The position numbers and the translations under genes were made by a program. Under the pieces are notes generated by a model. The model saw only the letters and a program-made list of their open reading frames with translations. It searched no databases and had not been told where the DNA came from. This document shows positions 1,224 to 16,901 of a stretch of DNA of 20,000 nucleotides, piece by piece; positions within the stretch are counted from its first letter, which is position 1; every line of letters begins with the position of its first letter. Source of the DNA: an uncultured virus (IMG/VR IMGVR_UViG_3300020048_000098) (Duplodnaviria > Heunggongvirae > Uroviricota > Caudoviricetes). The DNA lies in IMG/VR virus record IMGVR_UViG_3300020048_000098, positions 55,005 to 75,004 of that record, one strand, 5' to 3'.

Positions 1224-2223
1224 GGTTTAATACCTGTATAAGTTTGTTAACTTTCGCTTTATCTTCAATATTCTTTATCTTGCAATAGTTTTTAGCTAGT
1301 TTGGATTTACTTTCCATACTTATGATTGGTGACTTATTCTCCTGCGTTACTTGGTCTGCAGGAATTTCAATCCAGTAATTGGTATCCCTATCAATCTCAT
1401 CTACCCAAGGTTCTGTACCTCTTTTAAAGTATTTGAACTTAGGTAATTCATCAAATTCAATGAATTTCTGGGATACATCTGCCCTGATAATCCACATACC
1501 TAAGTTTGCATCAGAATCCGATTTCCTTAGTTGTGTAGGTGTACCAATAGTTAGGGTATTAAACCTATCACTAAACTGCGGTAGATGTATATGCCCATTT
1601 AATACTAAATCGAAATCATTGAATAAAGCTGCTACCTCAGTCTTTTTAAGGTTTTCAAAGGAACCTACTTCCCTGCCATCAGTATCTAATAACCCCGGTA
1701 AGTCCATGTGAGTAAGTAGGATATTTGTATCACCTTCTTTATTAGCATGTGCTTTTTGCAAGTTTTCCATTAACCCCAAGTTATGTGTATAGTAAGGTAA
1801 TCCATGGAATCTAACCTGGGTATCTCTTAGTATGAAGTCCTTATAAGTATTATCCAGGCAAATAAGGTTAGGACAAATCCTGGATAAGCTTCTTACCCAA
1901 CTTGGTGAAGAATGTTCCCCAGTATTTTGTTGGCTCATATCATGGTTACCCGATATACATAGGATACCCATTATTGATTTCTCAAATAGGGGTAGTATGA
2001 ATTTAGTGATAAGGTCAAAGAGTTCATTTGAACAGGAGTTATCTGCATTAAGTAAGTCACCAGCAATTATAAGTGGTACCTTATAATCATTGGCCTTCTT
2101 TACTGCCATTTCTAAAGCAGAATAGGAGGCCCAAAACCTCCTATTTTCTTGATTGTATTGTTTCCAGATGTGTAAGTGTATATCTGAGATAGCTACTGCT
2201 ATTACCGGGCTAGTGTTTGCCAT
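1213..2223 (-). CDS. SbcD/Mre11-like (T4 gp47-like) metallophosphoesterase nuclease
   Basis: Calcineurin-like motifs SDIHLH, AGDLL, SGNHD, LLTH and LNGHIHLPQ; adjacent to the Rad50-like gene. Confidence 0.92.
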   Translation of the reverse strand: MANTSPVIAVAISDIHLHIWKQYNQENRRFWASYSALEMAVKKANDYKVPLIIAGDLLNADNSCSNELFDLITKFILPLFEKSIMGILCISGNHDMSQQNTGEHSSPSWVRSLSRICPNLICLDNTYKDFILRDTQVRFHGLPYYTHNLGLMENLQKAHANKEGDTNILLTHMDLPGLLDTDGREVGSFENLKKTEVAALFNDFDLVLNGHIHLPQFSDRFNTLTIGTPTQLRKSDSDANLGMWIIRADVSQKFIEFDELPKFKYFKRGTEPWVDEIDRDTNYWIEIPADQVTQENKSPIISMESKSKLAKNYCKIKNIEDKAKVNKLIQVLNHEQ

Positions 2224-3109
2224 ATTGGGAATTATAGTTTTTAAAGGTATCTATGAATTCTGGTTTAGTAAAAGTGGTAATGGAATAGAGTTTTGAAATC
2301 TTGGCAATCTCCATCACATTTAACTTAGGGTTTTCATCAATATAGTAGGGGAGTTTTGTTTTTCTCTCGAACTTAATATAATAGTGACGCAGATTGATTA
2401 AACCATTGTTTCTAGTGATTAACTCACGGAACTTAGTATTATCTAATGGTTTAAATGTTTCACCCGATTCTAGATAGTTTTCTATGCTACCGTATTTATC
2501 CAGGAATGCCAATGCAGTTTTAGGTCCTACCTTAGGATATCCCGGGATATTATCTGAATCATCCCCGTTTAATACCAGGTAATCTAAAGCATACTTCAAG
2601 TCATATCCTATATGGTGTTTGAAAGTATGGGCATTTAATTCTACATCCTTACCTGGGTTATAAATACTACAGTCATCAGAAATACATTGGTGAAAGTCCT
2701 TGTCAGCAGAGATGATAACCTTGTGCCCAGGAGTTTCCCTCATAATTTTATATATGAGGTCATCTGCCTCGGTATCTTCTTTACCTATGACAACCTTTAA
2801 ACCCAAGTTGTAACATAATTGCATTACTACTTCCTTTTGTTCCATGAAGTTCTGGAAATCAAATCCCAACTTAGGAGTTCTAACTTTGTATTCAGGTAAG
2901 AGTTCCCGGCGATAGGTACTCTTACCCTTATCAAATACAATGTACACATCTGATGGTTGGTATTTATCGAATAACCTACGTATAATATATGGGAAGCCAT
3001 ATATGCAAGAAGTGCTTTGTCCATCTCTTGCCGTCATGTTATTGAATTTATAATAAGCCCGATATAGGGTATTATTACCATCTATGATTAGTGTACTATT
3101 CTTCTTCAT
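2210..3109 (-). CDS. 5'-3' exonuclease / flap endonuclease (PolI N-terminal, T5 D15 / T4 RNase H-like)
   Basis: Motifs LIIDGNNTLYRAY, VFD, YRRELLPEYK, EADD, ISADKDFHQ and H3TH GDDSDNIPGYPKVGPKTA. The ATG at 3109 (MKKNST) is preferred over the TTG at 3136. Confidence 0.93.
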   Translation of the reverse strand: MKKNSTLIIDGNNTLYRAYYKFNNMTARDGQSTSCIYGFPYIIRRLFDKYQPSDVYIVFDKGKSTYRRELLPEYKVRTPKLGFDFQNFMEQKEVVMQLCYNLGLKVVIGKEDTEADDLIYKIMRETPGHKVIISADKDFHQCISDDCSIYNPGKDVELNAHTFKHHIGYDLKYALDYLVLNGDDSDNIPGYPKVGPKTALAFLDKYGSIENYLESGETFKPLDNTKFRELITRNNGLINLRHYYIKFERKTKLPYYIDENPKLNVMEIAKISKLYSITTFTKPEFIDTFKNYNSQYGKH

Positions 3110-4217
3110 CTGCCCCAGTTTTAAGGTTTGCAACACTGTATAGGTTATTAGTGGTATTCTCTAATTGTTTCCTAGTTTTAGATAGGGTATTAATACCTGA
3201 AGCAGCAATTAGGGACTTACGTAATTTAGAGTTAGTCCTAATAACTTCATCGAAGTTATCCATACTGCTTGCAACCTTATCCTCACCAAAGTAAACTGCA
3301 TTACCCCGTTTTTCAACTACCTGTAATCTTAGGAATACTTCATTCAAACCATTATATTTATCGTACCCGATATCATCCCCAGCTTCATCGGTAAAGTATA
3401 CCTTAGTATGGAAACTTGGTTTAGGGGGTGCAATCTTATTCTTATGTACCCGGAATGATACCTCATTACCTAATCTACTAGGATTAGTTTTAGTACCCCC
3501 TTTGATTTGTTTACCTCTGTAAAGGAATACCCGTTGAGAAGCAAAGAATTTCATAGCACCACCCCCTGGAGTTGTATCGGCTTCCTCATACATAGAAGCA
3601 CCTACTTTAGCACGGAGTTGGTTAATGCAGATTGTACATATCCCAAGTGAGTCCAGGATAGGATTTCTTAGCCTAATCATTTTATAGATTGCTTTAGCGC
3701 GGTTACCCATTTCTGCTTTACTATCCAATAGGGTTGAGTCCATATTCTGTTCGCAATCCAGGGCAGCAAGGGAATCTATGATTAAAACGATAGGCTCATT
3801 ATTTACTAGTACCTTTCTTAGTTCTAATACCATATCCCCAATCCAGTCCCCAATCTTCTCAATTGAAATCTCGGGAAGGATATATACCTTTTCTAGGTTA
3901 ACCCCATTTTGAATTGCCCAGCCAGCAGTAAATGCCCTTTCAGCATCTACGAATAAACCAACTCCCCCTAGTGCTTGAGCAACTGATAAGAAGTCTAATG
4001 CTAAAAGGGTTTTACCTGATGACTCTTCACCAGCTAATTCTAACATTCTTCCATAGAGTATACCACCACCCAATGCTTCGTTAATACCGATATTCCTGGA
4101 TGGAAGCCATATAGCGTCTTCTTTAGGTACGCATATATCAGAAGCCAGCCCGGCGTTTGGATATTTCCGGGCTATATCTGACTTTCTTTTTATTCCTATT
4201 TTACTTATCTTGGCCAT
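3096..4217 (-). CDS. recA: Phage RecA/UvsX recombinase
   Basis: LGGG, Walker A GEESSGKT, FVDAE, IIDSLAAL, INQLR and TTPGGGAMKFFASQR match RecA motifs. Confidence 0.93.
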   Translation of the reverse strand: MAKISKIGIKRKSDIARKYPNAGLASDICVPKEDAIWLPSRNIGINEALGGGILYGRMLELAGEESSGKTLLALDFLSVAQALGGVGLFVDAERAFTAGWAIQNGVNLEKVYILPEISIEKIGDWIGDMVLELRKVLVNNEPIVLIIDSLAALDCEQNMDSTLLDSKAEMGNRAKAIYKMIRLRNPILDSLGICTICINQLRAKVGASMYEEADTTPGGGAMKFFASQRVFLYRGKQIKGGTKTNPSRLGNEVSFRVHKNKIAPPKPSFHTKVYFTDEAGDDIGYDKYNGLNEVFLRLQVVEKRGNAVYFGEDKVASSMDNFDEVIRTNSKLRKSLIAASGINTLSKTRKQLENTTNNLYSVANLKTGADEEE

Positions 4218-4219
4218 GA

Positions 4220-4984
4220 TTACATATCATCATTACGAGATTTTTTTCCTTTTCTTTCTTCTTTGTCCTTGTTACGGTCCTTACGTTTTCTTCTGCTTTC
4301 AGATTCATCCTCTTCTGCATCGGGTGTAGCAGTATTAAGGAATTTAGCAAGGTATTCTTCAGTTTCCTCATAAGTAGGAATGATACCTTTAACCATCTCT
4401 TCAAGGTTAATTGGTTTTGACCAACCCTTTGGACCTGCCGTATTTTTGCAGGGAGAAACAGTATATTCTGTATCTAATTTACCTTTACCTTCACGGGTAA
4501 GTTTTAAATCGTAACCATCTTCTGGGTCAGTGAAATCCCCCCAATCATCTTCATCAAGGAATAGGTCAATGATTTCATTGTAAAGGGAAGCAGTGATTTG
4601 AACAAATCTACCAGAACGTTCTTCATCTAATTCTTTACCCTTTTCATCTTTGTATACCGCTACTGGTAGTAGGTATTTGTTTTTAGGGGCAAGGATTTTA
4701 GCTAATGCCTTATCATCATCATCCTTAGATTTTTTAAGGGATTCATATTTCTCCATGATTGCGCATGGCATTCCAAATGTAGCTGGGGATATAATACCCT
4801 TGATTTCTGCACCCAGGTAGAATTGAACTACTTCCATTACGAAGTCTTCATCTTTACCTACTGGTAAAGGTCTAACTCTTAGTGTTCCCTCTTTTAGGAA
4901 AATAAGGTTCCCGCCCCCTTTTGAATTGTTTTTGAGGTCAGCTTTCTTAGCTTTTAACCTTTCCTTTAAACTCTGTTTCGCCAT
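4220..4984 (-). CDS. Single-stranded DNA-binding protein (gp32-like phage SSB)
   Basis: N-terminal LKEGTLRVRPLP and GYDLKLTREGKGKLDTEYTV patterns typical of phage gp32-like SSBs; highly charged C-terminal tail; position between the UvsY-like gene and recA. Confidence 0.75.
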   Translation of the reverse strand: MAKQSLKERLKAKKADLKNNSKGGGNLIFLKEGTLRVRPLPVGKDEDFVMEVVQFYLGAEIKGIISPATFGMPCAIMEKYESLKKSKDDDDKALAKILAPKNKYLLPVAVYKDEKGKELDEERSGRFVQITASLYNEIIDLFLDEDDWGDFTDPEDGYDLKLTREGKGKLDTEYTVSPCKNTAGPKGWSKPINLEEMVKGIIPTYEETEEYLAKFLNTATPDAEEDESESRRKRKDRNKDKEERKGKKSRNDDM

Positions 4985-5004
4985 TTTTATTAGGTTTAAT
5001 TAAA

Positions 5005-5463
5005 TTAACTTTGTTTCCTTAAATTAGCACTTAGCGTTTGCATCAAAAATGAACGTTGTTCAAATGATTTTACGCAGGTATCAAGAATACCTAAATTCTC
5101 TAAAGCATCTAGGTATTCCTTATTAGCTTTGGCATATTCCTCTGATACATCAGCATGTGCTTTAGCCATATCATTGTTGTAAACTTTCCCAGTTTCGGGG
5201 TCTAGGTCATTTTTATAATCAATATAAACCTTTGACCAGGCTTTATTCCTTTCTATATCCTTATCTTCCTTAATACGGGCATATTTTTTATGTAGCATAC
5301 ATAAGAACCCATAAGATTGGGGATTAACAAGCAACTCATCATTGATGTTATTCTCATTTATTACTAATTCCTCGTAAAGGTTAAATTTGAACTTTTCTTC
5401 CCCATACTTAATGGAGATGTTCATAAGGTCTGCCTTTGAAGCGTATCTGTGTAGTTTACTCAT
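5005..5463 (-). CDS. UvsY-like recombination mediator (helical/coiled-coil)
   Basis: 152 aa, predominantly helical, C-terminal KSFEQRSFLMQTLSANLR resembles UvsY-type proteins; synteny with SSB and RecA. Confidence 0.55.
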   Translation of the reverse strand: MSKLHRYASKADLMNISIKYGEEKFKFNLYEELVINENNINDELLVNPQSYGFLCMLHKKYARIKEDKDIERNKAWSKVYIDYKNDLDPETGKVYNNDMAKAHADVSEEYAKANKEYLDALENLGILDTCVKSFEQRSFLMQTLSANLRKQS

Positions 5464-5492
5464 TTTCTAATGATTTAGTTAATATAGCATTA

Positions 5493-6113
5493 CTAGTTAT
5501 TAAGGAATTCAGCAATCAACTTATATCTGTCCTCAATTTCCCCCCATGTATCAATACGTAATATCTTCGTGTTTGGGCAGTTATCCTTGAAGTATCTTTC
5601 GTAGGTATCTTCAAATACGGCAGTTACCATTCTTTGGTAGTATGGGTTATCAACCCTTGACCCATTATCTTCAATCTCTAAAGTTGGGTTTGAAAGGAAG
5701 ATAACATGTGTTAATTCATTAAAAGCCCTCATGCAACGGTTGATAAAGAATTCACAACGGGTAGCACCCATTAGGGGAGAACATTGTAGCATGAAGTAAC
5801 TTAGGTTATCTAATGGGGTTCTGTCAATAACAAAGTTATCATTTTCAGCTATGAAGGATACCCTTGCCTCTAATACTGCCTTTTGGAATTCCCAACCAAA
5901 TTCGGGGTTGATGTGTGATAACCTGATAACATCTTTATGCCCAGATTGAGTCCAGCCATATTTATTTACCAGTTCATTCTGTACTTCTTCTGCCATAAGT
6001 AATCCTGCAGAGTTTTCTTTAAATTTTAAACCCAATCTCTCTTGGATTAGGTTTGCCTGTGTGGTTTTGCCAGAGCCGGAGTGTCCACAGAATCCTACTT
6101 TAATTGTTTTCAT
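5493..6113 (-). CDS. P-loop nucleotide kinase (AAA_28/NadR-like; putative dNMP kinase)
   Basis: Walker A GHSGSGKTT at the N-terminus, VIDRTPLD motif typical of NMP-kinase-like proteins, and lid-like EDNGSR. Confidence 0.72.
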   Translation of the reverse strand: MKTIKVGFCGHSGSGKTTQANLIQERLGLKFKENSAGLLMAEEVQNELVNKYGWTQSGHKDVIRLSHINPEFGWEFQKAVLEARVSFIAENDNFVIDRTPLDNLSYFMLQCSPLMGATRCEFFINRCMRAFNELTHVIFLSNPTLEIEDNGSRVDNPYYQRMVTAVFEDTYERYFKDNCPNTKILRIDTWGEIEDRYKLIAEFLNN

Positions 6114-6116
6114 AAT

Positions 6117-8291
6117 TTATTTGTTTAACCAGGTTGTGTAATCTAAATTCTTATCATATTCGTGTAAGTCAGCCCAATGCCTACCTATTTCGCATTCTGC
6201 TTTCATTTTAACCTTTTCGAATTGGAACCCAAAGAATTCTTGGGTTTGGGGGTTTGAACATATCTCAATTAATTTTGGTACTAACCAATGGATATCCTCA
6301 GCTTTTACATAAAATCCCAGTGAGTCATGGACGGTGTATCTTAAATCCATGTAAGCAGGGAATTCCCCTAACCTTATTTTTTCCCATATAATAATGGCAC
6401 TAAATAAAGTAAAGTAGGAAGCTGCACCTTGTATAGGAGCATTAACGGATTGGCGCATTGCTTCTAATTGTTTTCCAAACATTGAGGAGTAAACATCTGG
6501 TAACCTACGTTTGAAACCAAAAGGGTTATATACATACCCATTCTCTTTAACGAAGGCATGTTGCTTAGCAATCCATTTTTTAATACCCGGAAATGATTTG
6601 AACCAATCATCTAATCCCTGTTGTGCTTCCTCTACCGTACAAACCTCTTTAGTTGCATTAGTAATTGTTTCAGCTAACTTCTTGGCAGACTGCCCGTAGA
6701 GTATCCCAAAGTTGTAGGTTTTTGCCTTCTTCTTCATCTTATTTGCCCAGTCATGCCTTGGATGACTTTCATCCTTAGTCATATCCCGGAGTTCCTTATA
6801 ATCCATATTTGCCATCTTTGCAGCAGTGGCAACGTGTATACTATAACCTTCCTGGAACATCTGAACCATATTCTTATCCCCTGACATCTCAGCAACTACC
6901 CTAAGTTCTGCTTGGGAGTAGTCTAATTCCATGTGTAGGAATCCATCCGGGGGTGTAAACATTCGTTTGATATCTGCATTGGTTGTTACACGGGGTATAT
7001 TCTGCAAATTGGGTGTTTCACTACTTAACCTGCAAGTTACAGTCCCATGTATCTTATAATTGGTATGAATCCAACCATCATCGGATGCCTCAGCTAATAT
7101 CCCTACGATATTTGTGGAATGTAACTTAGTTAAACCCCTATAATCTAGCATGGTTTCCAGGAACCCAGAATCATCCTGTTTTGCTAATTCTACCAATACA
7201 GATTCATCAGTTGAAGGTCTTTGTGTTTCCTTCTTGGTTTTCTTATCAACGGTATATTTTACGATATCGAATTGGAATCCATATTTACTGTTGAAAAGCA
7301 ATTCAATCATCTGGTTAGGACTTGCAAAATTGAAGGGTTCAAATGCTTCTAAGTCTTTTTTTGTAGTAAAGACATTGTTTATAATGTTAGATACTTTCTG
7401 CTTTCTAGTAGCTATCTGTTTTTGAATCGCAGCAACCTTCTTTTTGTCTACAATAGGTATATTTGCAGAAAGTGCTATGATTTCATCCTTGAGAACCCTT
7501 ATCATTGCCTTCTTCTTGGTTTTTAACCTTGCCTTGTCATATTTTAATACAAAAGGATGGCTGTTAAGAATAATCAGGGCATCTTCAATCTTTTTATCGT
7601 ACCTAAGTTTTAAGTCATTTAAGTATTCCATATCTAAGTGCATACCTTGGAACTCGGTTGTACCTAGAACCCTTGTAAGCATCATATTCATATTACGGAA
7701 TAACATATAAAACCCATTGTCAATACATTTCTTTTCGAATTGTAGCATTAATCGGAAAGTTGCATCGCAATCTATACCACAGTAAGTACCCATCGTACCC
7801 ATTGGAATTTTACCCCAATCTCTACCACTTTTTTCACCTAATTCCTTTTCATACCCAGCAAAGTCAGGTAAGAACCTTGCTACCATTGATTTCAGGTCAT
7901 TGGGTCTTTCTTCATTCAATAGGTACTTAGCTAACATACCATCAAAGAACCTACCCATTATTCTAACTTTGCTTGATTTGAACCATTTGTATTCATATTT
8001 GGCATTCCAAGCTATTTTAGTAATCTTTGGGTCAGACATAACCCCTTTACCGAATTTCTGCAGGATTCTTTCCCACTCACCCTTGAAAGGGGACTCATGG
8101 TGCCCTAATGGGATTATCCAGGTATTACCGGGTTGGAATGATACCCCTAACATTAATGGGATAGAGTAATCCTCGTAGTATTTTAAGTCCAGGGTTTCAA
8201 AGTCAATACAGGCATACCCTGTCTCTTTACAATAAGAAATCAGAGTTTCTAGCTCTGATTCCGTGTTAACCCAATTTAAGGTCGTTCTCAT
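6117..8291 (-). CDS. polA: DNA polymerase family A with 3'-5' exonuclease domain
   Basis: Exo I IDFET, Exo II WNAKYE, Exo III YCGID; RLSSETPNLQNIPR; motif A LDYSQAELR; motif B KAKTYNFGILYG; NAPIQG; motif C VHDS. Confidence 0.96.
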   Translation of the reverse strand: MRTTLNWVNTESELETLISYCKETGYACIDFETLDLKYYEDYSIPLMLGVSFQPGNTWIIPLGHHESPFKGEWERILQKFGKGVMSDPKITKIAWNAKYEYKWFKSSKVRIMGRFFDGMLAKYLLNEERPNDLKSMVARFLPDFAGYEKELGEKSGRDWGKIPMGTMGTYCGIDCDATFRLMLQFEKKCIDNGFYMLFRNMNMMLTRVLGTTEFQGMHLDMEYLNDLKLRYDKKIEDALIILNSHPFVLKYDKARLKTKKKAMIRVLKDEIIALSANIPIVDKKKVAAIQKQIATRKQKVSNIINNVFTTKKDLEAFEPFNFASPNQMIELLFNSKYGFQFDIVKYTVDKKTKKETQRPSTDESVLVELAKQDDSGFLETMLDYRGLTKLHSTNIVGILAEASDDGWIHTNYKIHGTVTCRLSSETPNLQNIPRVTTNADIKRMFTPPDGFLHMELDYSQAELRVVAEMSGDKNMVQMFQEGYSIHVATAAKMANMDYKELRDMTKDESHPRHDWANKMKKKAKTYNFGILYGQSAKKLAETITNATKEVCTVEEAQQGLDDWFKSFPGIKKWIAKQHAFVKENGYVYNPFGFKRRLPDVYSSMFGKQLEAMRQSVNAPIQGAASYFTLFSAIIIWEKIRLGEFPAYMDLRYTVHDSLGFYVKAEDIHWLVPKLIEICSNPQTQEFFGFQFEKVKMKAECEIGRHWADLHEYDKNLDYTTWLNK

Positions 8292-8703
8292 ATATCCTTT
8301 CTACGTTTACACCACATTTCATTAATAAATCAATTCCCTCTGTAGTTCTGTAGGGGGTTAGGTATACTACAGTTTGAATACCTGCCTGTACTATTAATTC
8401 AGCACATTTTCTGCAAGGCCCAGATGTACAGTATAAAGTAGCACCTATTAAGGATATACCGAATCTGGCAGCATAAGAAATAGCATTAGCTTCGGCATGT
8501 ACGGTATTTAAGCAAGGGTTATCGGCATTACAATTTTCATCAGTGCAATGTGGTAAACCCTTTATTGAACCATTATACCCAGTTACTATTATCCTACCAT
8601 CCTTAGTAACGGTGCAACCCACCTTTCCCCTGTTGCAAGTGGAGCGTTGCGATACGACGAGTGCTATCTGCATCGCCATCTGAATTCTTGAAATCCTTGC
8701 CAT
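8266..8703 (-). CDS. dCMP deaminase (ComEB/cd family)
   Basis: RSTC..KVG, TGYNG, zinc motifs HAEANAI and PCRKCA. Confidence 0.93.
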   Translation of the reverse strand: MARISRIQMAMQIALVVSQRSTCNRGKVGCTVTKDGRIIVTGYNGSIKGLPHCTDENCNADNPCLNTVHAEANAISYAARFGISLIGATLYCTSGPCRKCAELIVQAGIQTVVYLTPYRTTEGIDLLMKCGVNVERIYENDLKLG

Positions 8704-8992
8704 ATTTTATTTTGTTTAGTAATTTATCCCTCCTATTATTATAGTGGGAATCAAAACCTTGCTGTTCCTCCCTAGATAGTTTTGCTATCTGCAGTGCAAT
8801 AAAGAACTGAGCATGTGCCAATTCCTCAATAAACTTTTCTTTAGTTTGCTTGTCCTTCTTGCCATTTACGATTTTACAGAGTGGGTGAGTTAACTCTGCC
8901 ATTTCCTCTATCAACTTAACTTGGGAGTAGTTAACCCCCAAGTTTTTGTCTGATGCCGATATGATTTCTTTTAAACTATTCAGCTGGTTCAT
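8603..8992 (-). CDS. MazG-like nucleotide pyrophosphohydrolase
   Basis: KLIEEMAEL...EELAH resembles the MazG EExxEL...EExxD pattern, with the last Asp replaced by His. The C-terminal ~33 codons overlap the deaminase gene. Confidence 0.6.
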   Translation of the reverse strand: MNQLNSLKEIISASDKNLGVNYSQVKLIEEMAELTHPLCKIVNGKKDKQTKEKFIEELAHAQFFIALQIAKLSREEQQGFDSHYNNRRDKLLNKIKYGKDFKNSDGDADSTRRIATLHLQQGKGGLHRY

Positions 8993-9722
8993 ATCCTGTA
9001 ATATCTTGAATACATGTTTTTAGAGTACCCCAATCTTTTTTGTAGGAATGAAGAGAAGTGATGTTATGGTATAGAAATCCGGGTTCTAACCTCGCACGTT
9101 GTGCAACGTACTTCATAAGTTCGAATGCTAACCATACATCATTCCCAAAGTGCACTACTACATCTGCACTCCTTTGATTGTAAATAATATGTAATCTACC
9201 GTTTCTTGCTAAGAATTGGTAGTATACCGAGCAGGGTACTCTTTTCTTACCCCCGATAGTAAGGATATCTGTTCTATCCCATACAGATAGTATACATTGC
9301 CTTGAATCTGGGTTACGTTTTAATTCGCATACGATATTTTGAAGGAATACTGGAGCATACATACGTTCACTGTAAGTATAATCCTGTTTACCATCTACCA
9401 AGAATTGTTCCCATAGTTCAGGTCTTATTTTCCAAGCTTCACCTGGGTTAGAAGGTATATTACTTACTCTTTCCTGGAATTCTGCTTTTACCCATTCTTC
9501 AGAACGTTTATCGGCTTTAAATAAATATTCTTCCTTATCTCTACTTTGTAGGCAGTAAGAATAATTTATAATTTCCTTNNNNNNNNNNTCCTTAGTGATG
9601 TAGTCATCATTGCCTTCAATCACTTTATTTTGCATTGACTTGGGTTTTACTATTTGGCCCATTTCATAAACTTCTCTGAAAGCCTCAGACATAAGTTCGT
9701 AGCAGTTCTCATATATCCTCAT
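8976..9722 (-). CDS. Thymidylate-synthase-fold enzyme 1, dCMP hydroxymethylase (T4 gp42)-like
   Basis: YTYSERM, NPDSRQCILSVWD, catalytic PCS, QFLAR, QRSADVVVHFGNDVW (compare T4 gp42 RSNDVVFGFRNDYAW) and SLHSY. Contains a 10-N assembly gap at 9579-9588. Confidence 0.85.
   Translation of the reverse strand: MRIYENCYELMSEAFREVYEMGQIVKPKSMQNKVIEGNDDYITKXXXXKEIINYSYCLQSRDKEEYLFKADKRSEEWVKAEFQERVSNIPSNPGEAWKIRPELWEQFLVDGKQDYTYSERMYAPVFLQNIVCELKRNPDSRQCILSVWDRTDILTIGGKKRVPCSVYYQFLARNGRLHIIYNQRSADVVVHFGNDVWLAFELMKYVAQRARLEPGFLYHNITSLHSYKKDWGTLKTCIQDITGYEPAE
9579..9588. other. Assembly scaffold gap (10 N) with 5-nt duplicated flank
   Basis: TCCTT occurs on both sides of the N run; collapsing it restores in-frame YITKEIINY. 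Confidence 0.85.
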
Positions 9723-9770
9723 AAGGTATTTGTTTTAGTTAATATATAATAGAATCTAGTTTATTTATAG

Positions 9771-10547
9771 TTAAACACTTAAGTAACAGTCTTTTGCTAC
9801 GAAATCTTTCACTGGAAACTTATCTGCCTGCAATCTTTTAACTGCCCGCAAGTGAACTTTATACTTGATAGTAGCCGGGTCCACATGTTTGAAGTGTTTC
9901 AGGGTATCAACTACCTTCTTTTGAAAAGGTAGCATCTCGGATTTAGTATCTATGATTTTACGGATTTTCTTATGGTTATTATACATGGCACTGAACTCAG
10001 CAGTGGTATAAATATTACCGCAGAATAGTTGTAAACCAAAAGCCTTTTCCCCATAAACATATTCTCCCATTCTTTGGAGTAATAATAGGTCTACTGCCAA
10101 TCTCTTTACTACTTCCGAAGAACGTAGGTTGAATAACAGTACAGGTGCTATACCTGATGGCCTCCTTAAGAAAGTACAGCTTAATAAACACCCTTTACCC
10201 GAACCATGGGAGTTAGAGAAATTAAAGGATATATTATATTGTTTGCTGTTCTTCATTTCCCGGGATAAGATTTCGCTTTTTACCAAGTCAAGGTAGTCCA
10301 GGTTTATGTAGTTACTTACTAGGGATTTCCATTTAGTAGGGGTATATCCAAAGAGTTTACCGAAGTTAAAGTCAGGACTTAACCAGGCACGGTGTATATC
10401 AACGAAGTGATTATATGAAACAAGTTGGGAGCCTGTACGTAGGCCCCCCCTTTGCAATATCTCCGTTTCATGTTGCATAAAGTATTCGTTGATACCTTCC
10501 CAACATTCTTGTGAACTCCCGTAGGAGTGGGTTTTTACTAAGTCCAT
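9771..10547 (-). CDS. Thymidylate-synthase-fold protein 2, divergent
   Basis: GKGCLLSCTF then LFNLRSSEVVKRLAVDL reproduces the Cys...RSxD/E-x7-N/D spacing of the TS fold. It lacks a recognisable H-x-Y motif (FCGNIY) and is adjacent to TS-fold gene 1. Confidence 0.65.
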   Translation of the reverse strand: MDLVKTHSYGSSQECWEGINEYFMQHETEILQRGGLRTGSQLVSYNHFVDIHRAWLSPDFNFGKLFGYTPTKWKSLVSNYINLDYLDLVKSEILSREMKNSKQYNISFNFSNSHGSGKGCLLSCTFLRRPSGIAPVLLFNLRSSEVVKRLAVDLLLLQRMGEYVYGEKAFGLQLFCGNIYTTAEFSAMYNNHKKIRKIIDTKSEMLPFQKKVVDTLKHFKHVDPATIKYKVHLRAVKRLQADKFPVKDFVAKDCYLSV

Positions 10548-11185
10548 TAATACTTAGATTTAATTCTGAAGAAATTAACTCTGTTCTTTTTGTAGTATAG
10601 GTTTACCATCTCCAGTGGGTTTATTTGTAGATAAGCACACATTTTAAGGAAAGCTCTCCAAGATAGTTTTAGATTATCCCTGAAAGCAGTGGTATCCGTA
10701 ATCATCTGTGTTTGTTTCCAAGGTTTGTTTTTTAGGCAATTCCTTGCAATCATTAAATGGTAAGTAACTTGCCACATAACTTTAGAGATGTTACCAAGTT
10801 CCAATTCATTGGTATCAACTGGGTATTCCATTACCTTTAAATCATCTGGTTGTAATCCAGCATAGATAAGGGTTTCTAATAAAAAATGTAGAGCATCTGC
10901 CACTTCCTCAGTTGCATTACTCATGTGATTTAACCATTCTGTAGAACCCATATCTTCTGCCCCAGCCATGCAATAGGATTCGTAGGATTCCCCTAATTCT
11001 TCAACTACCCTGCCAATGAAATCCTTGAAGAGTACCTGGTTAGTTTTCATATCTGGATTAATTGGGTACTGAGGTAATCCCTCAATTGAAATGTAATGGT
11101 CAAGCAATTCTTTTTGCCAACCGAACAAAGCAACTATTGGGTTGCCTGTTATAACTGGTACTTCTTTAATGTCTCTTACGTCCAT
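10547..11185 (-). CDS. Dimeric (all-alpha) dUTPase / T4 gp56 dCTPase-like pyrophosphatase
   Basis: VEELGESYE, EEVADALHF, KNKPWK and C-terminal YYKKNRVNFFRIKSKY match the all-alpha dUTPase/dCTPase pattern. Confidence 0.82.
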   Translation of the reverse strand: MDVRDIKEVPVITGNPIVALFGWQKELLDHYISIEGLPQYPINPDMKTNQVLFKDFIGRVVEELGESYESYCMAGAEDMGSTEWLNHMSNATEEVADALHFLLETLIYAGLQPDDLKVMEYPVDTNELELGNISKVMWQVTYHLMIARNCLKNKPWKQTQMITDTTAFRDNLKLSWRAFLKMCAYLQINPLEMVNLYYKKNRVNFFRIKSKY

Positions 11186-11562
11186 TGGAATAGGGTTTTT
11201 ATTTGTTTAGTAGTGAATTGGTATTTCTTTTTAATCATTATCCTGATACGAGCATCAGATACACCCGCCTTCTGTTTTTTCTGGATAAACTTTTCTACTT
11301 CTAACCTTGCTTCTAATGCACCGGCATCTAAATCTTTGAAGGTTGCTTTCTTTTCTTCCCCTTTTCTAATCTTCTTCATGCTCTGGCTAAAAGCTATTGC
11401 ACATGCCTCAATATCCCCGCAGAGTTGGCACTCATGGGCATTTAAGTCATATTCCTTACCAAAGCAAGGGTCATCATCACCCCCGAGTTTAAGGAACTGC
11501 ATTGGTTTCATTAAATCTTCATCAGGTATACTGCTACTCCTGGATTCTCTAAACTTGCTCAT
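11176..11562 (-). CDS. Hypothetical protein with Cys cluster (putative zinc-binding)
   Basis: PCFG-x8-ECQLC-x5-C and a Lys-rich helical C-terminus; translationally packed with its neighbours. Confidence 0.6.
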   Translation of the reverse strand: MSKFRESRSSSIPDEDLMKPMQFLKLGGDDDPCFGKEYDLNAHECQLCGDIEACAIAFSQSMKKIRKGEEKKATFKDLDAGALEARLEVEKFIQKKQKAGVSDARIRIMIKKKYQFTTKQIKTLFQWT

Positions 11563-11563
11563 A

Positions 11564-12979
11564 TTAGAATTTTTTTATTACTTTGATTTGTTCATTCTTA
11601 TAATAGTTTACCCGATGTTTTGAGTGTCTTTGCAAATACTTCCCTGAGTCATAGATATCGTCAAGGTATATTCGGTTTTTAGTTTCTGATGTTCTAAGTC
11701 CTCTTCCGAGTACCTGCAGAACGTTTGCAGCAGAGTCTCCCCCTCCGGCATTACAGATGTATTTAATTAAAGGCATATTCTGACCTCTCTTAATAATCAT
11801 TGAGGTAATCAGTACATCTAGTTTACCTTTCCTGAATTTCTCTATAATCTTTGCTCTGTCTTTTACTTCATGGTGTATGAACTTGCAGGATATTTTGTTT
11901 TCTGCTAGTTTATCTTTCATGAACTTATATAGATTTTCTACGTGTTCATGGAATATTGCAACTACGAGCATCGGTTTTCTGCCATGCTTTAAATTGAATA
12001 TAACTCTTTCATAAACTATTTGGTGTCTATCTTCATTTAGAGTTATATTATACCGGTACTCGGTAGGATAATCTGGGTAAGAAGGTCGGTTTGGTGCTTG
12101 TATTATCTTAATAATGGGCTTGGTTGAAATGCCCATATCGATTAGTTCATGGTTTTTTATTATGAATACCTCATACCCCATGAAGGAATGTAATTCTAGG
12201 TGTTTTAATTCATCCTTCTTTAACTTACTCATAAATACAGTACCTGATAATCCTACTCTGATGGGTGCATTGTATAAAGCCTCTATACATTTCCTATACG
12301 TTTTAGAAGTACCTAAGTCACATTCATCAATAATTACGGTAGAAACATCATTTAATTCCTCCCGGTACCTTTGTAGGTTATTTATAAGTGTTTGAACCAT
12401 CACTACATTAATCTTGGAACCCCAACGAATATCCTTGCCTTTCATACAACCCCATTCCCCGTCTGCAAATACTTTGGGCATATCTTTTATGAACTGGTCA
12501 TATAGGGCTGTGTTATTAAGTAGGATTATACTTACGTTATCCCGGAATGATAAGTGTACACCAAATAACATATAGGTTTTACCCGCATTAGTTGCTGCAT
12601 TAATTACCCCTACGGGAAACTCAACCTCCCCTACGGTATTTTCTACCAGGGCTTTTACTGCTTCATATTGATAACCTCTTAAGGAAGTACCTGAAACTTC
12701 TTCTGGTACTCCTATATAAGTAGGTAGTACCCGTAAGTCCCTTAACTCCCAACTATACCCCAGTTCTTCTATCTTTGCTACTACTGCGGGGAATAAACCG
12801 GTTTTGAAGTATGCTGCTTCGGTTATGTAGTATACGCAACCATCCCACCCTTTCGGCATGTGAGACCTGATGTGAAAAGCGTTTGGGTGTTTTACCTTTA
12901 GTTCATTCCTAATCTTATTAAGCTTAACTAATTCTCCTTCCAACTTACCCTTGTTGTTGTTTAATACAATTCTTATCAT
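11564..12979 (-). CDS. SF2 DExD helicase (UvsW/Hef-like)
   Basis: Q-motif LRGYQ, Walker A AATNAGKT, DECD, motif III GLSGT and motif VI QVLGRGLR. Confidence 0.92.
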   Translation of the reverse strand: MIRIVLNNNKGKLEGELVKLNKIRNELKVKHPNAFHIRSHMPKGWDGCVYYITEAAYFKTGLFPAVVAKIEELGYSWELRDLRVLPTYIGVPEEVSGTSLRGYQYEAVKALVENTVGEVEFPVGVINAATNAGKTYMLFGVHLSFRDNVSIILLNNTALYDQFIKDMPKVFADGEWGCMKGKDIRWGSKINVVMVQTLINNLQRYREELNDVSTVIIDECDLGTSKTYRKCIEALYNAPIRVGLSGTVFMSKLKKDELKHLELHSFMGYEVFIIKNHELIDMGISTKPIIKIIQAPNRPSYPDYPTEYRYNITLNEDRHQIVYERVIFNLKHGRKPMLVVAIFHEHVENLYKFMKDKLAENKISCKFIHHEVKDRAKIIEKFRKGKLDVLITSMIIKRGQNMPLIKYICNAGGGDSAANVLQVLGRGLRTSETKNRIYLDDIYDSGKYLQRHSKHRVNYYKNEQIKVIKKF

Positions 12980-13794
12980 AGGTTCTTTAAGTTTTTTAAT
13001 CCTACTTTCTTAGTTTCACAGCCCTTTAAGTTTTTCTCGTATAGGTATTTATTCAACCTTTGGATTGCTCTTTCATTTGTTAGTTGTCCGGGTTCCGGTA
13101 ATCCCTCCTTGTATTCTAATCCTGCAAACTGAGCTCGGATATAGATTTTAACTGATACCCTTAACTTCCTGCAGGTTTCTGCCACCCTTTTGAAGTGTAT
13201 CATCTTGGTTGGGTCATTCTCTAAACCCATTGAGATACCTGTTCTTTCCAATACCTTGGTATTATATACATGGTATGCTTCCTCGGTTTCAGAGCGGTGT
13301 TCATCTTTCATTAATTCATAGGTGCATTCAAAACAGGAATTAATATACCCAGCTAAACTCTTTAAAGTGCTTAGGTTGAAATTCCTCATCTTACCCAATC
13401 CTATTGTTATGTATTTAATGTAACCTTCCCTCTTCTCTAATTCAAAGGCATTACAAAATTCATTTGCAAGTTCTACCACTTCCTTTAAAATCAACCAATC
13501 CTTACTTGAGGGTTTGATTTGTTGTATACCCCTATGTTTGAGTTGTCTTCTAGTGTTTAAAAGCAAATTAGCAAATAAATCAGTATCTGATATGGTGGCA
13601 GATGCTACTTTAGTTGCTTTCTCTTCCATTTTCTTATTATCAACCCTGATACCCCTATTGGAACAGGACTTATGTTTTATCAACCTCATAATCATTGCAC
13701 AGTATTCGTATGTAGATTCACTACCATCTACTGCTACATTGTCGAATGCCCATTCTAAGTCTGATAATTTTACGTGTATGCTTGGGTCTCTCAT
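12976..13794 (-). CDS. Hypothetical replication-cluster protein
   Basis: 272 aa ORF with 4-bp ATGA overlaps to both neighbours (primase and SF2 helicase); no recognisable motif. Confidence 0.7.
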   Translation of the reverse strand: MRDPSIHVKLSDLEWAFDNVAVDGSESTYEYCAMIMRLIKHKSCSNRGIRVDNKKMEEKATKVASATISDTDLFANLLLNTRRQLKHRGIQQIKPSSKDWLILKEVVELANEFCNAFELEKREGYIKYITIGLGKMRNFNLSTLKSLAGYINSCFECTYELMKDEHRSETEEAYHVYNTKVLERTGISMGLENDPTKMIHFKRVAETCRKLRVSVKIYIRAQFAGLEYKEGLPEPGQLTNERAIQRLNKYLYEKNLKGCETKKVGLKNLKNL

Positions 13795-14729
13795 TTCCTA
13801 AGTTTTAAAATGTCTGTATAGGATAAATATCTATTTTTCCTGCATATATTTATAGTTTTCTTCTTACCGTAGGAGTTAACATCTTCTTCACCGGGTAAGC
13901 ATATTACTTTGACTTTCTTATAGGGTTGTAGGAATAATGCCATTGATATAGCTTTATCCTGAGCATCTGGGTCAAGTATTATTATAAAGTTTTCTACGGG
14001 GGATTTAACCAGCATTGATAGCTGTGCATTAGAAAAGGACTTACCCCCTCCCGCTATAGCAGCATCCCCGATTGTACGGGCATTAAGTACTGATTCAACT
14101 ATGTAAACTGTTTTGTAAATGGCAAGGGCATCAAAGTTATATATTACCAGTGACTTCCCTATATTTACTTCCTCAATAGGTGGGTTATTAAATCTAGGGC
14201 CTGAACCCAGGAATAACCTTGCGTGGAAATATACCAGTTTATTTGCCATATAGAAAGGCATTATTATATACCCTTGGTATTTCCCAGAAGTACAATATCC
14301 AAAACCAGCTAGGGTCAAATCATCAATATCGAACCCACGCCCCTCCATATAGCTCCTAGCCGATATGCCCCATTGTGAATCTCCCATAGATAAAGGGGAG
14401 AAACTTTCGGGGAGTTCCGCATTAGCATTGTATACTAGGTCAGGTATATAATCCTTGTATTCTGCAGTTGATTCTATCCCGGCAAGTAAACTATAGTATT
14501 CTTGGTTTGAAGTGAATCCCTCAACCTCCATTATAGTTTTCTTAAGGTCAGGATAACCCCCACAGTAAAAGCAGTTAGCCCGGTTCATCCCAATATGGAC
14601 CCCGAACTTATCTTCTTTACCACAACGGGGACAGTTACCTTTTAACCATCCCCGTGTGTAATTACGCATACCTAGTCGTTTTATGAAGTAGGTATATACC
14701 TTATTTTTAGAGTCCCTTGTTAAACTCAT
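13791..14729 (-). CDS. DNA primase (zinc-binding domain + TOPRIM)
   Basis: CPRC...CFYC zinc ribbon, YMEGRGF, IIMPF, TOPRIM IVES...LDPDA and EDVN; adjacent to the DnaB-like helicase. Confidence 0.88.
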   Translation of the reverse strand: MSLTRDSKNKVYTYFIKRLGMRNYTRGWLKGNCPRCGKEDKFGVHIGMNRANCFYCGGYPDLKKTIMEVEGFTSNQEYYSLLAGIESTAEYKDYIPDLVYNANAELPESFSPLSMGDSQWGISARSYMEGRGFDIDDLTLAGFGYCTSGKYQGYIIMPFYMANKLVYFHARLFLGSGPRFNNPPIEEVNIGKSLVIYNFDALAIYKTVYIVESVLNARTIGDAAIAGGGKSFSNAQLSMLVKSPVENFIIILDPDAQDKAISMALFLQPYKKVKVICLPGEEDVNSYGKKKTINICRKNRYLSYTDILKLRK

Positions 14730-16102
14730 TCGTCATCTCCTATTTCCATTTGAGTTTGTGAGAACATCTTATCATACTCATGGCGTTGAGCCGGTTTCAT
14801 TTCCTCTATTCTTTGGCATTCTGCATCTACATAGAATACCCCCCTGCCCGTAGGTTTACCATCTCGTTGAACTATAAGTTCCATCCTTACTATACCTTCT
14901 TCCAATTCCTCCTCATTTGCATTTAAACCATAGATGGCATGTACGTGCCTAACTATATCAATACATTTGGCAATATCAGATTCCTTATACTTAGTTTTAC
15001 TGCGTTTTTCAGCATCCCTTACAACGTGATGGGCAGTCCATACATGTTCTATATCATTCCTCTCAGCTAAGTTGGCAACATCAATATAAGCATCTGATAT
15101 CCTTTCAGTATCATCTTGCTTACGAGATATAGAACCCATCTTACCCAAGTAGTCAATAACTAATACCTGTGTTTGGAATCCATGGTCCCTATATAGTTCA
15201 TCCATTACTGCTTGGATATCCATTGCATTTGAAAAAGCTGGTAACCTGCGTATTACTACTTCACCCCCTATTCGGCGGTATTTCCTTAAAATCTTTTGTA
15301 TGTACTTATCCTCTTTACCGGATAAAATTTCCTGTTTAGTGGATTTTGATAAACTTTGCTCGATACGTATTGCAATTTCTTCTTCTCCATTCTCTAAGTC
15401 AATATAGAGTACCTTCTTCTTAAGTTTCATATAACCCCTGGAAAGGTTTACTAACATTGCTGTTTTAAGTTTCTTTGGCCTATCCAATACTAACATGATA
15501 CTGTTCTTAGCATACCCCCCGGCATTGGTTAAAGCATTGATTTGTCTAAAGGGGGTAGGTATGATGTGAGACTCAGTTTGACGTTTCATTTGCCTATCCT
15601 TGATATCCTTTATTAAGAATGTCCCCTTTACAGTATCTTTATAAGTCCTTAAGTTTATTGCCTTTTGAACCTTTGCTGCAAATTCTGGGTAGGTTGCTAC
15701 ATTGTAGATATCTATGTTTTCTACCTGGTCCTTCATCTCAGTAAAGGAAGCAAAGTTTGCGCATTTATTAAATATCTCGTCAGAATCCTTTAAATGCTTA
15801 GCAAATAAGGTATCAACTAATTTAATAACATTCTTTTGGTCATCCCCAGTAAGTGACTCGATATATTCTCTTTGTTTGAACATATCATAGAGTTCCTCTT
15901 TTAATATGGTTTTCCCTGGAACTCTTTTATTCTTGTTATAGAATTCCTTTATTGCTGTGGCAATTACTGCATGTTCTAGAAGTGCAAAGTATGAATCTTT
16001 AAATAACTCAACCACTAAGTGCCCGTTTCTGTCTAGAACTGCATAGGATAATAAATCTTCTTGGTAATCTAACCCGTATTCAAATTTCGGTGTATCCCTC
16101 AT
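14726..16102 (-). CDS. Replicative DnaB-like (SF4) helicase
   Basis: IPTPF..IN..T..GG, Walker A-like DRPKKLKT, VLYIDLENG, Walker B VLVIDY, WTAHH and QRDG; next to primase. Confidence 0.85.
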   Translation of the reverse strand: MRDTPKFEYGLDYQEDLLSYAVLDRNGHLVVELFKDSYFALLEHAVIATAIKEFYNKNKRVPGKTILKEELYDMFKQREYIESLTGDDQKNVIKLVDTLFAKHLKDSDEIFNKCANFASFTEMKDQVENIDIYNVATYPEFAAKVQKAINLRTYKDTVKGTFLIKDIKDRQMKRQTESHIIPTPFRQINALTNAGGYAKNSIMLVLDRPKKLKTAMLVNLSRGYMKLKKKVLYIDLENGEEEIAIRIEQSLSKSTKQEILSGKEDKYIQKILRKYRRIGGEVVIRRLPAFSNAMDIQAVMDELYRDHGFQTQVLVIDYLGKMGSISRKQDDTERISDAYIDVANLAERNDIEHVWTAHHVVRDAEKRSKTKYKESDIAKCIDIVRHVHAIYGLNANEEELEEGIVRMELIVQRDGKPTGRGVFYVDAECQRIEEMKPAQRHEYDKMFSQTQMEIGDDE

Positions 16103-16265: not shown

Positions 16266-16901
16266 ATGGAACTTCACAGGTTAAAAGAAATGCCGGAGAA
16301 TTATAATCCGGAGTTATTCAATAGTTTATATGAGAAAACTAAGCAATTAAGAAACTCTCTATCTTACCAGATTGACCACCGCAGATTGGGGGTTACTCAG
16401 GATGAAATCAAATCCTGGTTTAGTGATAAGTTTATGTTTGCTTATTGCAAGTACTTTGAGGAATTCGAAGAGAATATCCTTTTGGGGCATATTATTAAAT
16501 CCCTACAATTTTTTAAATGTAGAATTCTCAGAAAAGTATACCAGGAATCCTCTAGCCTTTATTCAAATGAGATTTCCCTGGATAACGTTCAACTTTCAAA
16601 TATTATTGAAGATGAAACAGAGATGGGAGAAAAGGAAGTCCTTATGAATCTAGCATTAGAATTTATGAAGAATAAGATTTCCAATGATGCGTATCAGTTG
16701 TTAACACTAGAACTTCAACCTCCTATCTATATAACCAGCAGGATTGCTTCTACAAGTAGTAGGATACCTAATAAATTAATCCTAGAATTTTTAGGGGTAC
16801 CTTACAATCAGAATACCCAAGATTACATCAAGGGTCTAAGAGAGGAAATACAAACTGGTATTTCTAATGCTCGGGAATACTTTTCTCAGGTATCTATATA
16901 A
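16266..16901 (+). CDS. Putative phage-encoded sigma-factor-like transcription regulator
   Basis: The only credible plus-strand gene, with its own promoter and terminator. The N-terminal LFNSLY...QDEIKSWFSDKFMFAYCKY resembles sigma region 2 and the C-terminal ISNDAYQLL...NKLILEFLGV resembles a region 4 HTH. The function is inferred. Confidence 0.5.
   Translation: MELHRLKEMPENYNPELFNSLYEKTKQLRNSLSYQIDHRRLGVTQDEIKSWFSDKFMFAYCKYFEEFEENILLGHIIKSLQFFKCRILRKVYQESSSLYSNEISLDNVQLSNIIEDETEMGEKEVLMNLALEFMKNKISNDAYQLLTLELQPPIYITSRIASTSSRIPNKLILEFLGVPYNQNTQDYIKGLREEIQTGISNAREYFSQVSI

Follow-up and report, generated by a model that had tools for sequence, protein, structure and literature searches.

The T-even pathway to hydroxymethyl-deoxycytidine uses gp56, gp42, gp1 and cd, that is, a pyrophosphatase, a cytosine-type homolog of thymidylate synthase (TS), a kinase and a deaminase. 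Phage Xp12, in which 5-methylcytosine replaces cytosine in full, carries an analogous run of DHFR, deoxycytidine monophosphate (dCMP) deaminase, a TS homolog with Asp at position 177 and a PRA-PH pyrophosphatase; the run is compact, its pyrophosphohydrolase is all-alpha, and in the relative AXL1 PolA lies nearby. The TS fold also acts on dCMP in the flavin-dependent 5-hydroxy-dCMP synthases (RB69 gp48, DLP3 gp80 and HY126 AfhB) and on cytosine nucleotides in MilA, the CMP hydroxymethylase of the mildiomycin pathway, and Asp177 TS homologs accompany deaminase and pyrophosphohydrolase domains on the cytosine-modified contigs of the MetaGPA study (Yang et al., eLife 2021, PMC8670742). Here we describe a cluster with the same functional set as the T-even pathway and a compact run resembling that of Xp12. 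It lies in the 20 kb at the end of a single 75,004-bp phage contig (IMG/VR record IMGVR_UViG_3300020048_000098, record positions 55005-75004), and this whole 20,000-nucleotide stretch is called the window below. The cluster encodes two proteins with a TS fold, TS1 and TS2, both predicted to act on cytosine nucleotides, and on balance we favour its reading as a T4/Xp12-like, pre-replicative replacement of deoxycytidine (dC) by a C5-substituted dC. The logic of such a pathway is that of T4 and Xp12 and already known; the novelty lies in the signatures of the two enzymes.

The cluster consists of seven open reading frames (ORFs) on the minus strand, all named in an earlier note on this DNA and all present where that note had placed them. 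Five of the seven have a firm family assignment (PF08761 pyrophosphatase, PF00303 TS homolog, PF00383 deaminase, PolA with proofreading, P-loop kinase). For comparison with relatives we used IMG/VR, in which 561 candidate stretches yielded 446 that encode one; the best 80 were fetched, and presence counts of the cluster genes out of 80 loci refer to tblastn at 1e-5 unless noted. In order of transcription, the seven genes and the conserved ORF directly upstream of them (orf128) are:

11176..11562, minus strand: conserved ORF (orf128), 128 aa, directly upstream of the pyrophosphatase and found at the same position in 73/80 loci
10547..11185, minus strand: all-alpha nucleoside triphosphate pyrophosphatase of the dimeric dUTPase/dCTPase type, 212 aa (PF08761 dUTPase_2)
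9771..10547, minus strand: TS-fold 2 (TS2), 258 aa (structure model)
8976..9722, minus strand: TS-fold 1 (TS1), 248 aa (PF00303)
8603..8992, minus strand: small ORF, possibly a MazG-like pyrophosphohydrolase, 129 aa (phrog_2245)
8266..8703, minus strand: dCMP deaminase, 145 aa (PF00383)
6117..8291, minus strand: PolA (family A DNA polymerase) with a 3'-5' exonuclease domain, 724 aa (PF00476, PF01612)
5493..6113, minus strand: P-loop nucleoside/nucleotide kinase of the dNK/TMPK fold, 206 aa (phrog_2107, model)

TS1 is a PF00303 protein (E 5.1e-17) whose own sequence is unusable for identity look-ups or folds because a masked run of ten N (9587-9596) lies inside the gene, where residues 44-47 read X. 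When TS1 and ten relatives were aligned with E. coli ThyA, T4 gp42, SPO1 gp29 and the Xp12 TS homolog, TS1 was seen to retain Glu58, Trp80, Tyr94, Arg126, Cys146, Arg166, Ser167, Asp169, His207 and Tyr209, with three substitutions relative to ThyA, namely Asn177 to Asp, Leu143 to Arg and His147 to Ser. The Asn177 column holds Asp in TS1 and in the cytosine enzymes of T4 and Xp12, and Asn in the uracil enzyme SPO1 gp29. An Arg three residues before the Cys and a Gly-Asn-Asp motif are invariant in 51/51 relatives of TS1. The C-terminus is short, as in the T4 dCMP hydroxymethylase (dCH), and lacks the ThyA-type tail: the residues following the Tyr209 column number 14-21 in the TS1 family (21 in TS1 itself), 28 in T4, 55 in ThyA and 61 in Xp12.

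TS2 (9771..10547) finds no match in Pfam, NCBIfam or PDB sequence searches. Its AF2 model, built from 52 homologs, has a predicted local distance difference test (pLDDT) score of 94.8, and Foldseek of the model against the PDB ranked MilA, T4 dCMP hydroxymethylase and AfhB (the dCMP hydroxylase of phage HY126) highest (E 1e-5), the top matches all being TS-fold enzymes of cytosine nucleotides. By VIA the nearest structural neighbour is AfhB (9iqu and 9iqc, Z 14.3 and 13.8, with 181 residues aligned to 9iqu), its lead over MilA (Z 13.2) lying within tie range, and canonical TS follows at Z ~10.5. The TS fold that had been proposed for this protein from the letters alone is thus borne out by the predicted structure, despite the absence of any sequence-family match. 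TS2 maps onto ThyA as Cys120=Cys146, Arg142=Arg166, Glu145=Asp169 and Asp153=Asn177 (hhalign E 0.0015, probability 16.5%, plus identical Arg-to-Asp spacing). Cys120, Arg142 and Asp153 are invariant in 27/27 TS2 members, down to ~15% identity, and Glu145 is nearly so; in the set of 52 sequences, both Asp153 and Glu145 are invariant (52/52). Gly117, three residues before the Cys, is invariant as well, and TS2 is without the Arg126/127 pair.

The family around TS2 is large. None of its 107 close homologs has a Pfam domain, 0/30 scanned family members match PF00303, and at E <= 1e-3 it comprises 227 clusters at 50% identity among 1.84 billion representatives. Its Atlas neighbours are viral, and a BFVD search adds an uncharacterised protein of Pseudomonas phage PMBT14 as a structural relative (TM 0.70). 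TS2 represents a divergent lineage of the thymidylate-synthase fold that is confined to viruses. As a side observation, 88/190 full-length relatives carry a Lys/Arg-rich C-terminal extension (PYPEDCI...RKKFK motif), which the window TS2 does not have; AT-hook-like GRP strings occur in three relatives, and in some distant members the C-terminus is an acidic stretch preceding GGY/F-R/K. A nucleic-acid or replisome tether is a possible role for these extensions.

What TS1 and TS2 act upon can be read from position 177. Asn177Asp switches ThyA to dCMP, and across 433 metagenomic TS homologs positions 177 (Asp) and 147 were those most associated with cytosine-modified phage contigs (PMC8670742); the same position-177 rule is used in PMC13326640. 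It was specifically the modified contigs on which that study also saw TS together with domains of dCMP deaminase and pyrophosphohydrolase (PMC8670742). Since both TS1 and TS2 have Asp at the position of Asn177, both read as cytosine-nucleotide enzymes, and their action on cytosine rather than uracil nucleotides is supported by these residues. The same position bears on a thymidine-type pathway like that of SPO1, in which 5-hydroxymethyl-dUMP would be made from dUMP supplied by the deaminase. SPO1 too unites a family A polymerase with a TS homolog, a dUTPase-like protein and a putative dCMP deaminase, a resemblance to be set against the dispensability of the deaminase in most relatives of the present cluster. 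We regard this pathway as scarcely credible here, and SPO1-type 5-hydroxymethyluracil chemistry was rejected as SPO1 gp29 keeps Asn177 and both TS1 and TS2 have Asp.

Product signatures have been published for three classes of enzyme. Hydroxymethylases have Asp or Glu three residues before the Cys (PMC6400193, PMC13326640); in T4 dCH this residue, Asp145, is essential for hydroxymethylation, and Asp145Asn yields no product (PMC6400193). Neither protein of the window has it, TS1 showing an invariant Arg and TS2 an invariant Gly at that place. The flavin-dependent 5-hydroxy-dCMP synthases have Asn at Asp169 (PMC13326640), a change found neither in TS1 (Asp) nor in TS2 (Glu145). Reductive methylases need a C-terminal tail that seals the active site (PMC6400193); TS1 has no such tail and the genome no DHFR, whereas Xp12 has both. 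By these residues neither TS1 nor TS2 fits any of the three published signatures, so the product is not assignable from them. Although the folate-activating residues Glu58 and Asp169 are retained, TS1 is unable to seal its site, and we therefore lean towards a non-reduced one-carbon adduct as its probable product. The earlier note had guessed at chemistry other than that of T4, which suits the lack of both the hydroxymethylase Asp/Glu and Asp169Asn. A further rule, by which a hydrophobic residue at Leu143 means methyl, was not used, as the Xp12 methylase has Asn there in our alignment.

The remaining genes were assigned mostly by family. The pyrophosphatase matches PF08761 dUTPase_2 (E 2.1e-10, 41.6 bits, cut-off 22.9) and phrog_12184 (6.3e-21). 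T4 gp56 itself passes PF08761 (2e-5, 25.4 bits, cut-off 22.9) and matches a hidden Markov model (HMM) of the window pyrophosphatase family at 4e-11, so that the gp56 likeness claimed for this gene holds at the level of the Pfam family. PolA is identified by PF00476 (5e-79), PF01612 (1.8e-17) and phrog_17 (4.8e-118). The kinase matches phrog_2107 ‘thymidylate kinase’ (3.2e-13), Pfam AAA_28 (1.4e-6) and dNK (7.4e-5, below cut-off). PDB sequence searches with the pyrophosphatase and the kinase returned nothing useful. The kinase model (pLDDT 95.1) has a dNK/TMPK fold, with M. mycoides deoxyadenosine kinase, A. aeolicus TMP kinase and dCK as the top Foldseek matches (TM ~0.62, E ~1e-7 to 1e-5). 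Invariant in its family are Gly10, Ser12, Gly13, Gly15, Lys16 and Thr18 of the P-loop, Asp97-Arg98, Arg153 and Arg196. The kinase had been likened to T4 gp1, a likeness that fails: it has no match to PF21448 (gp1 itself 3.1e-107), and pairwise BLASTP with gp1 finds nothing.

The deaminase is recognized by PF00383 (2.1e-24), phrog_174 (4.3e-55) and TIGR02571 (3.9e-37), and its translation shows the zinc-binding HAE and PCxxC motifs. The 273-nt gap that separates TS1 from the deaminase is filled by the small, lineage-specific MazG-like ORF, which matches only phrog_2245 (E 1.8e-6, residues 3-64). It has no Pfam, NCBIfam or PDB match and no significant similarity to the Xp12 PRA-PH pyrophosphatase; EExxE-like and EELAH strings are visible in its translation, with His in place of the usual Asp. 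The small ORF and the deaminase ORF share 101 nt (8603-8703) in different frames; the explanation is either a later Met as the start of the deaminase or an artefactual C-terminal quarter of the small ORF.

The gene-neighbourhood survey, an approach put forward in the earlier note, recovered a syntenic core of pyrophosphatase-TS2-TS1-PolA in the IMG/VR relatives. The order is fixed as helicase, orf128, pyrophosphatase, TS2, TS1, (deaminase), PolA, (kinase), and because it is kept in related contigs the arrangement is not a matter of chance. TS2 is present in 80/80 loci by construction of the locus search. PolA is likewise found in 80/80 and TS1 in 78/80, the two exceptions being contigs of 4.9 kb and 9.7 kb. 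The pyrophosphatase is found in 67/80 by tblastn and in at least 71/80 with the family HMM, and the kinase in 56/80. The deaminase occurs in 24/80 loci and the MazG-like ORF has a counterpart in 0/80, and both are therefore accessories. This leaves the dCMP deaminase of the earlier note in place as regards family and motifs, though not as a core member; its ‘extra MazG’ comes down to one weak PHROG match without a counterpart in the relatives. In 21/80 loci, the stretch from helicase to PolA also contains a trimeric dUTPase/dCTP-deaminase-like gene (PF00692 / PF22769; e.g. L018:10812-11327 and L026:10623-11183); of the 24 loci that bear the deaminase, just 2 have it. This near-exclusive distribution suggests two alternative routes to dUMP. 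For the deaminase itself we propose a role as accessory supplier of dUMP or as a deaminase of 5-substituted dCMP.

Several insertions were seen in the relatives. Sixteen of the 80 loci have a Cpn10/GroES-like gene (PF00166, ~1e-15) between TS2 and TS1 (e.g. L020:10787-11098 and L017:1287-1601), and homing endonucleases also occur in the helicase-to-PolA interval. The PolA match falls into two to three pieces in 20/80 loci and in MT121964, a relative from human faeces (L004:13169-16306), with HNH, DUF559 and GIY-YIG homing-endonuclease ORFs near the split genes, which suggests that the polymerase gene may hold introns or inteins. MT121964 also has two tandem TS2 paralogs ahead of TS1 (L004:8274-9038 and 9292-10014), and its pyrophosphatase match is split in two by an insertion.

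The module is also found in cultured phages. In C. perfringens phage CPD4, which stands for a group of such phages, CPD4_73 is the pyrophosphatase (34% identity, 3e-37), CPD4_74 is TS2-like (hhalign 96%, 2.6e-9) and retains the Cys and the Arg-x-x-Glu...Asp motif, and CPD4_75 is TS1-like, with 42% identity to the TS1 relative P0108, the Arg before the Cys, Asp177 and the short C-terminus; Pol I comes after it. Serratia phage Serbin has, in order, a ‘thymidylate kinase’, a PF08761 ‘dUTPase’, the hypothetical protein gp51, the ‘thymidylate synthase’ gp50, a ‘cytidine deaminase’ and Pol I. Phage Tlacuache shows this arrangement too. Serbin gp50 bears the TS1 signature, and gp51 aligns weakly with TS2 (E 9.5e-4, probability 22%) with the Cys and the motif retained; the kinases of Serbin and of the window cannot be called one family because their alignment covers only the P-loop, at 30 columns. 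Database annotation of CPD4, Clo-PEP-1 and Serbin makes these ordinary thymidylate genes, and the Serbin genome announcement treats them as thymidine/cytidine metabolism (PMC6509536). In the search listings of the literature on the relatives' accessions, PMBT14 and the CPD4-group phages, no entry pointed to DNA modification.

Taken at face value, such annotations would make the cluster a set of ordinary thymidylate and dNTP biosynthesis genes. An ordinary role is very unlikely in view of the TS-fold proteins themselves, since position 177 is invariably Asp, not Asn, in TS1 and TS2, TS1 has no C-terminal tail, and a non-canonical second protein with the TS fold is never missing. The module is mis-annotated in the cultured Clostridium and Serratia phages.

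Under the favoured reading of the cluster as a route to C5-substituted dC, the PF08761 pyrophosphatase would, judging by its family, hydrolyse dCTP and probably also dUTP to the monophosphate, thereby draining the canonical pool and supplying the substrate. TS1 would then attach a one-carbon unit to C5 of dCMP by way of its Cys nucleophile and probably methylene-tetrahydrofolate, given that Glu58 and Asp169 are kept. The dNK/TMPK-fold kinase, together with host nucleoside diphosphate kinase, would raise the product to the triphosphate, and the phage PolA would incorporate it. The deaminase, or in other lineages the trimeric dUTPase/dCTP-deaminase-like gene, may channel cytosine nucleotides into dUMP, from which the host would make thymidylate, a diversion that suits a genome of 62% A+T (G+C 37.6%). 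TS2, as a second, obligatorily co-inherited, cytosine-type Cys enzyme, would either make a second C5 derivative or work with TS1. In favour of this reading are the Pfam family shared with T4 gp56, Asp177 in TS1 and TS2, the analogous run of Xp12, the synteny in IMG/VR relatives and cultured phages, and a 75-kb genome in which no canonical Asn177 TS, ThyX or DHFR was found.

A number of points weigh against this reading. That the modified base enters DNA is something we purely infer; the favoured product lacks the backing of a known signature, TS1 having no Asp/Glu three residues before the Cys; the residue mapping of TS2 rests on a low-probability hhalign alignment (16.5%) and conserved spacing; and the kinase, for which a substrate is only proposed, is outside the gp1 family and is found in just 56/80 loci within the fetched flanks. 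Outside the window, the genome also has a C5 DNA-methylase-like gene (G000:C1:27640-28665, minus strand, = L002:8640-9665; PF00145, 7.7e-17), in whose product the motif IV sequence GAP(D/N/S)CG(H/P)SS, with an invariant Cys, replaces PPCQ, and the ENLP and QxRxR motifs are kept. The gene adjoins terminase and lysis genes and is kept in 5/5 relatives examined; such an enzyme would have no substrate where every cytosine is already C5-substituted. Furthermore, a single GATC is present in the 75,004 bp where ~248 are expected (maximal-order Markov model, z ~-15.7), and several other palindromes with C are depleted as well (observed vs expected, ATGCAT 1 vs 14.5, CATATG 2 vs 16.3, CCTAGG 0 vs 11.9); the depletion therefore indicates DNA still under restriction pressure. 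Strong depletion of GATC (observed/expected below 0.2) is seen in only 10/80 relatives' loci, so its avoidance looks like a host-specific adaptation. The methylase-like gene and GATC avoidance fit modest or partial modification, or a conversion of the nucleotide pool. Of the T4-like pathway proposed in the earlier note, then, the gene set and the likeness to gp56 stand, cytosine as substrate is supported by the Asp177 seen here, and a blanket protection of cytosine as in T4 is weakened by these two observations.

The first of these fits would mean that a modified cytosine nucleotide is made without wholesale replacement of dC, either as partial modification or with the product put to another use, for example to escape or poison host nucleotide-depletion or dCTP-directed defences, with sequence-specific C5 methylation by the phage methylase-like enzyme handling restriction. 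Besides the conserved methylase-like gene and the depleted palindromes, the lack of detectable downstream hypermodification genes speaks for it. We nevertheless judge it fairly unlikely, since full replacement is classically marked by a dedicated gp56-family pyrophosphatase and a kinase in tight linkage with the polymerase, and our literature searches found no precedent for it.

The second would leave no modified base in the virion at all. Deamination of 5-methyl-dCMP yields dTMP. The cluster could thus run from dCTP through dCMP (pyrophosphatase), 5-methyl-dCMP (TS1) and dTMP (deaminase) to dTDP (kinase), serving an A+T-rich genome and bypassing dUMP and host ThyA. Domain scans of the 75-kb genome, at 37.6% G+C, found no canonical Asn177 TS, ThyX or DHFR; the best family label of the kinase is thymidylate kinase, with a fold that matches TMPK/dNK; and a conserved methylase-like gene and restriction-site avoidance would be reconciled with unmodified bulk DNA. 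This conversion is, however, a rather improbable explanation. The deaminase is missing from 56/80 related loci, while TS1 and TS2 are kept; TS1 has no reductive-methylation tail and, unlike the Xp12 enzyme, no accompanying DHFR; TS2 is left without a role; and the occurrence of Asp177 TS homologs correlates statistically with modified DNA (PMC8670742).

Set beside the described systems, the proposed replacement pathway departs from each in particular ways. With T4 it shares the PF08761 pyrophosphatase, and TS1 and gp42 have in common the Cys, Asp at position 177 and a short C-terminus. T4, however, uses a family B rather than a family A polymerase, a PF21448 kinase and one TS-fold gene where the window has two, has Asp/Glu three residues before the Cys where TS1 has Arg, and keeps its genes scattered where those of the window are contiguous; no glucosyltransferase is detectable here. 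The Xp12 TS has 289 aa with a ThyA-like C-terminal segment of 61 residues and an adjoining DHFR, against 21 residues and no DHFR for TS1, its pyrophosphatase is of the PRA-PH type (PF01503) and not PF08761, and there is no TS2. The 5-hydroxy-dCMP synthases, with which TS1 and TS2 would share a TS fold acting on dCMP, differ by Asp169Asn (Asp in TS1, Glu in TS2), and no arabinosyl- or glycosyltransferase genes were found here. MilA, among the best structural matches of TS2, is a cellular enzyme of an antibiotic pathway that acts on a ribonucleotide and has Asp at 143 and 177 (PMC13326640), where TS2 has Gly at 143. The MetaGPA contigs have a carbamoyltransferase branch leading to 5-carbamoyloxymethylcytosine, for which no carbamoyltransferase exists here, and the available portion of that study makes no mention of a second, Pfam-invisible TS-fold partner (PMC8670742). 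No glycosyltransferase, TET or carbamoyltransferase was detected in this genome, nor in 79 further ORFs scanned in a complete 81.3-kb relative, one giant ORF left out, which extends beyond the window the earlier remark that it has no glycosyltransferase.

Our literature searches, outside the bioRxiv supplements and the MetaGPA supplementary tables, found no description of the TS2 partner or of the base. It is possible, and we hold this tentatively, that TS1 and TS2 are two undescribed, co-evolving branches of the TS superfamily that jointly make a C5-cytosine that is neither 5-methyl, 5-hydroxymethyl nor 5-hydroxy. Possible routes would then be an exocyclic methylene trapped by a nucleophile other than water, or the action of TS2 on something else than the free 5'-monophosphate.

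The genome around the cluster is that of a phage with a contractile tail. Window positions 1-16102 form a single minus-strand replication/recombination block with SbcCD, FEN, a UvsX-like recombinase, a gp32-like single-stranded DNA-binding protein, a UvsY-like protein, the cluster described here, helicase, primase and DnaB. The rest of the genome encodes virion proteins (tail sheath, gp19-type tube, baseplate J, gp25, V, portal, major head protein and terminase), with an ATP-dependent ligase, a PDDEXK nuclease, a GNAT, a DUF3310 protein and the C5 DNA-methylase-like protein elsewhere. Between the replication block and a structural-like block lies the sole sizeable plus-strand ORF (window 16266-16901, 211 aa), for which Pfam, PHROGs and NCBIfam gave no match; orf128 (11176..11562) has no match in Pfam, PHROG or NCBIfam either. 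The contig terminates within an ORF at the window's end and contains three runs of exactly ten N, at window 9587-9596 and at genome 41576-41585 and 46601-46610. By blastn against phages, the DNA gave three short matches only. The label ‘Bacteroidota phage’ attached to this DNA in the earlier note finds no real support, neither the host scan nor the Atlas rows giving a host call: in the scan of genome contigs only two phage-sized contigs from metagenome-assembled genomes and one 573-bp contig matched, and the Atlas host rows include one faint Bacteroidota row (phylum known for 2). The only sequencing run with this sequence is labelled aquatic metagenome.

The module is widespread, with at least 446 IMG/VR loci, ~227 TS2 clusters at 50% identity and at least two cultured phage groups. 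TS1 and TS2 break all three published product rules, for hydroxymethyl, hydroxy and methyl, and so could either put those rules directly to the test or lead to a new base. Base modifications of phages determine the restriction, CRISPR and glycosylase defences that are effective against them; they also introduce bias into sequencing and virome surveys and have provided enzymes for epigenetic tools. If the tentative reading of TS1 and TS2 as joint makers of another C5-cytosine is true, a new base would be present in several phage lineages, among them cultured Serratia and Clostridium phages annotated with ordinary thymidylate genes.

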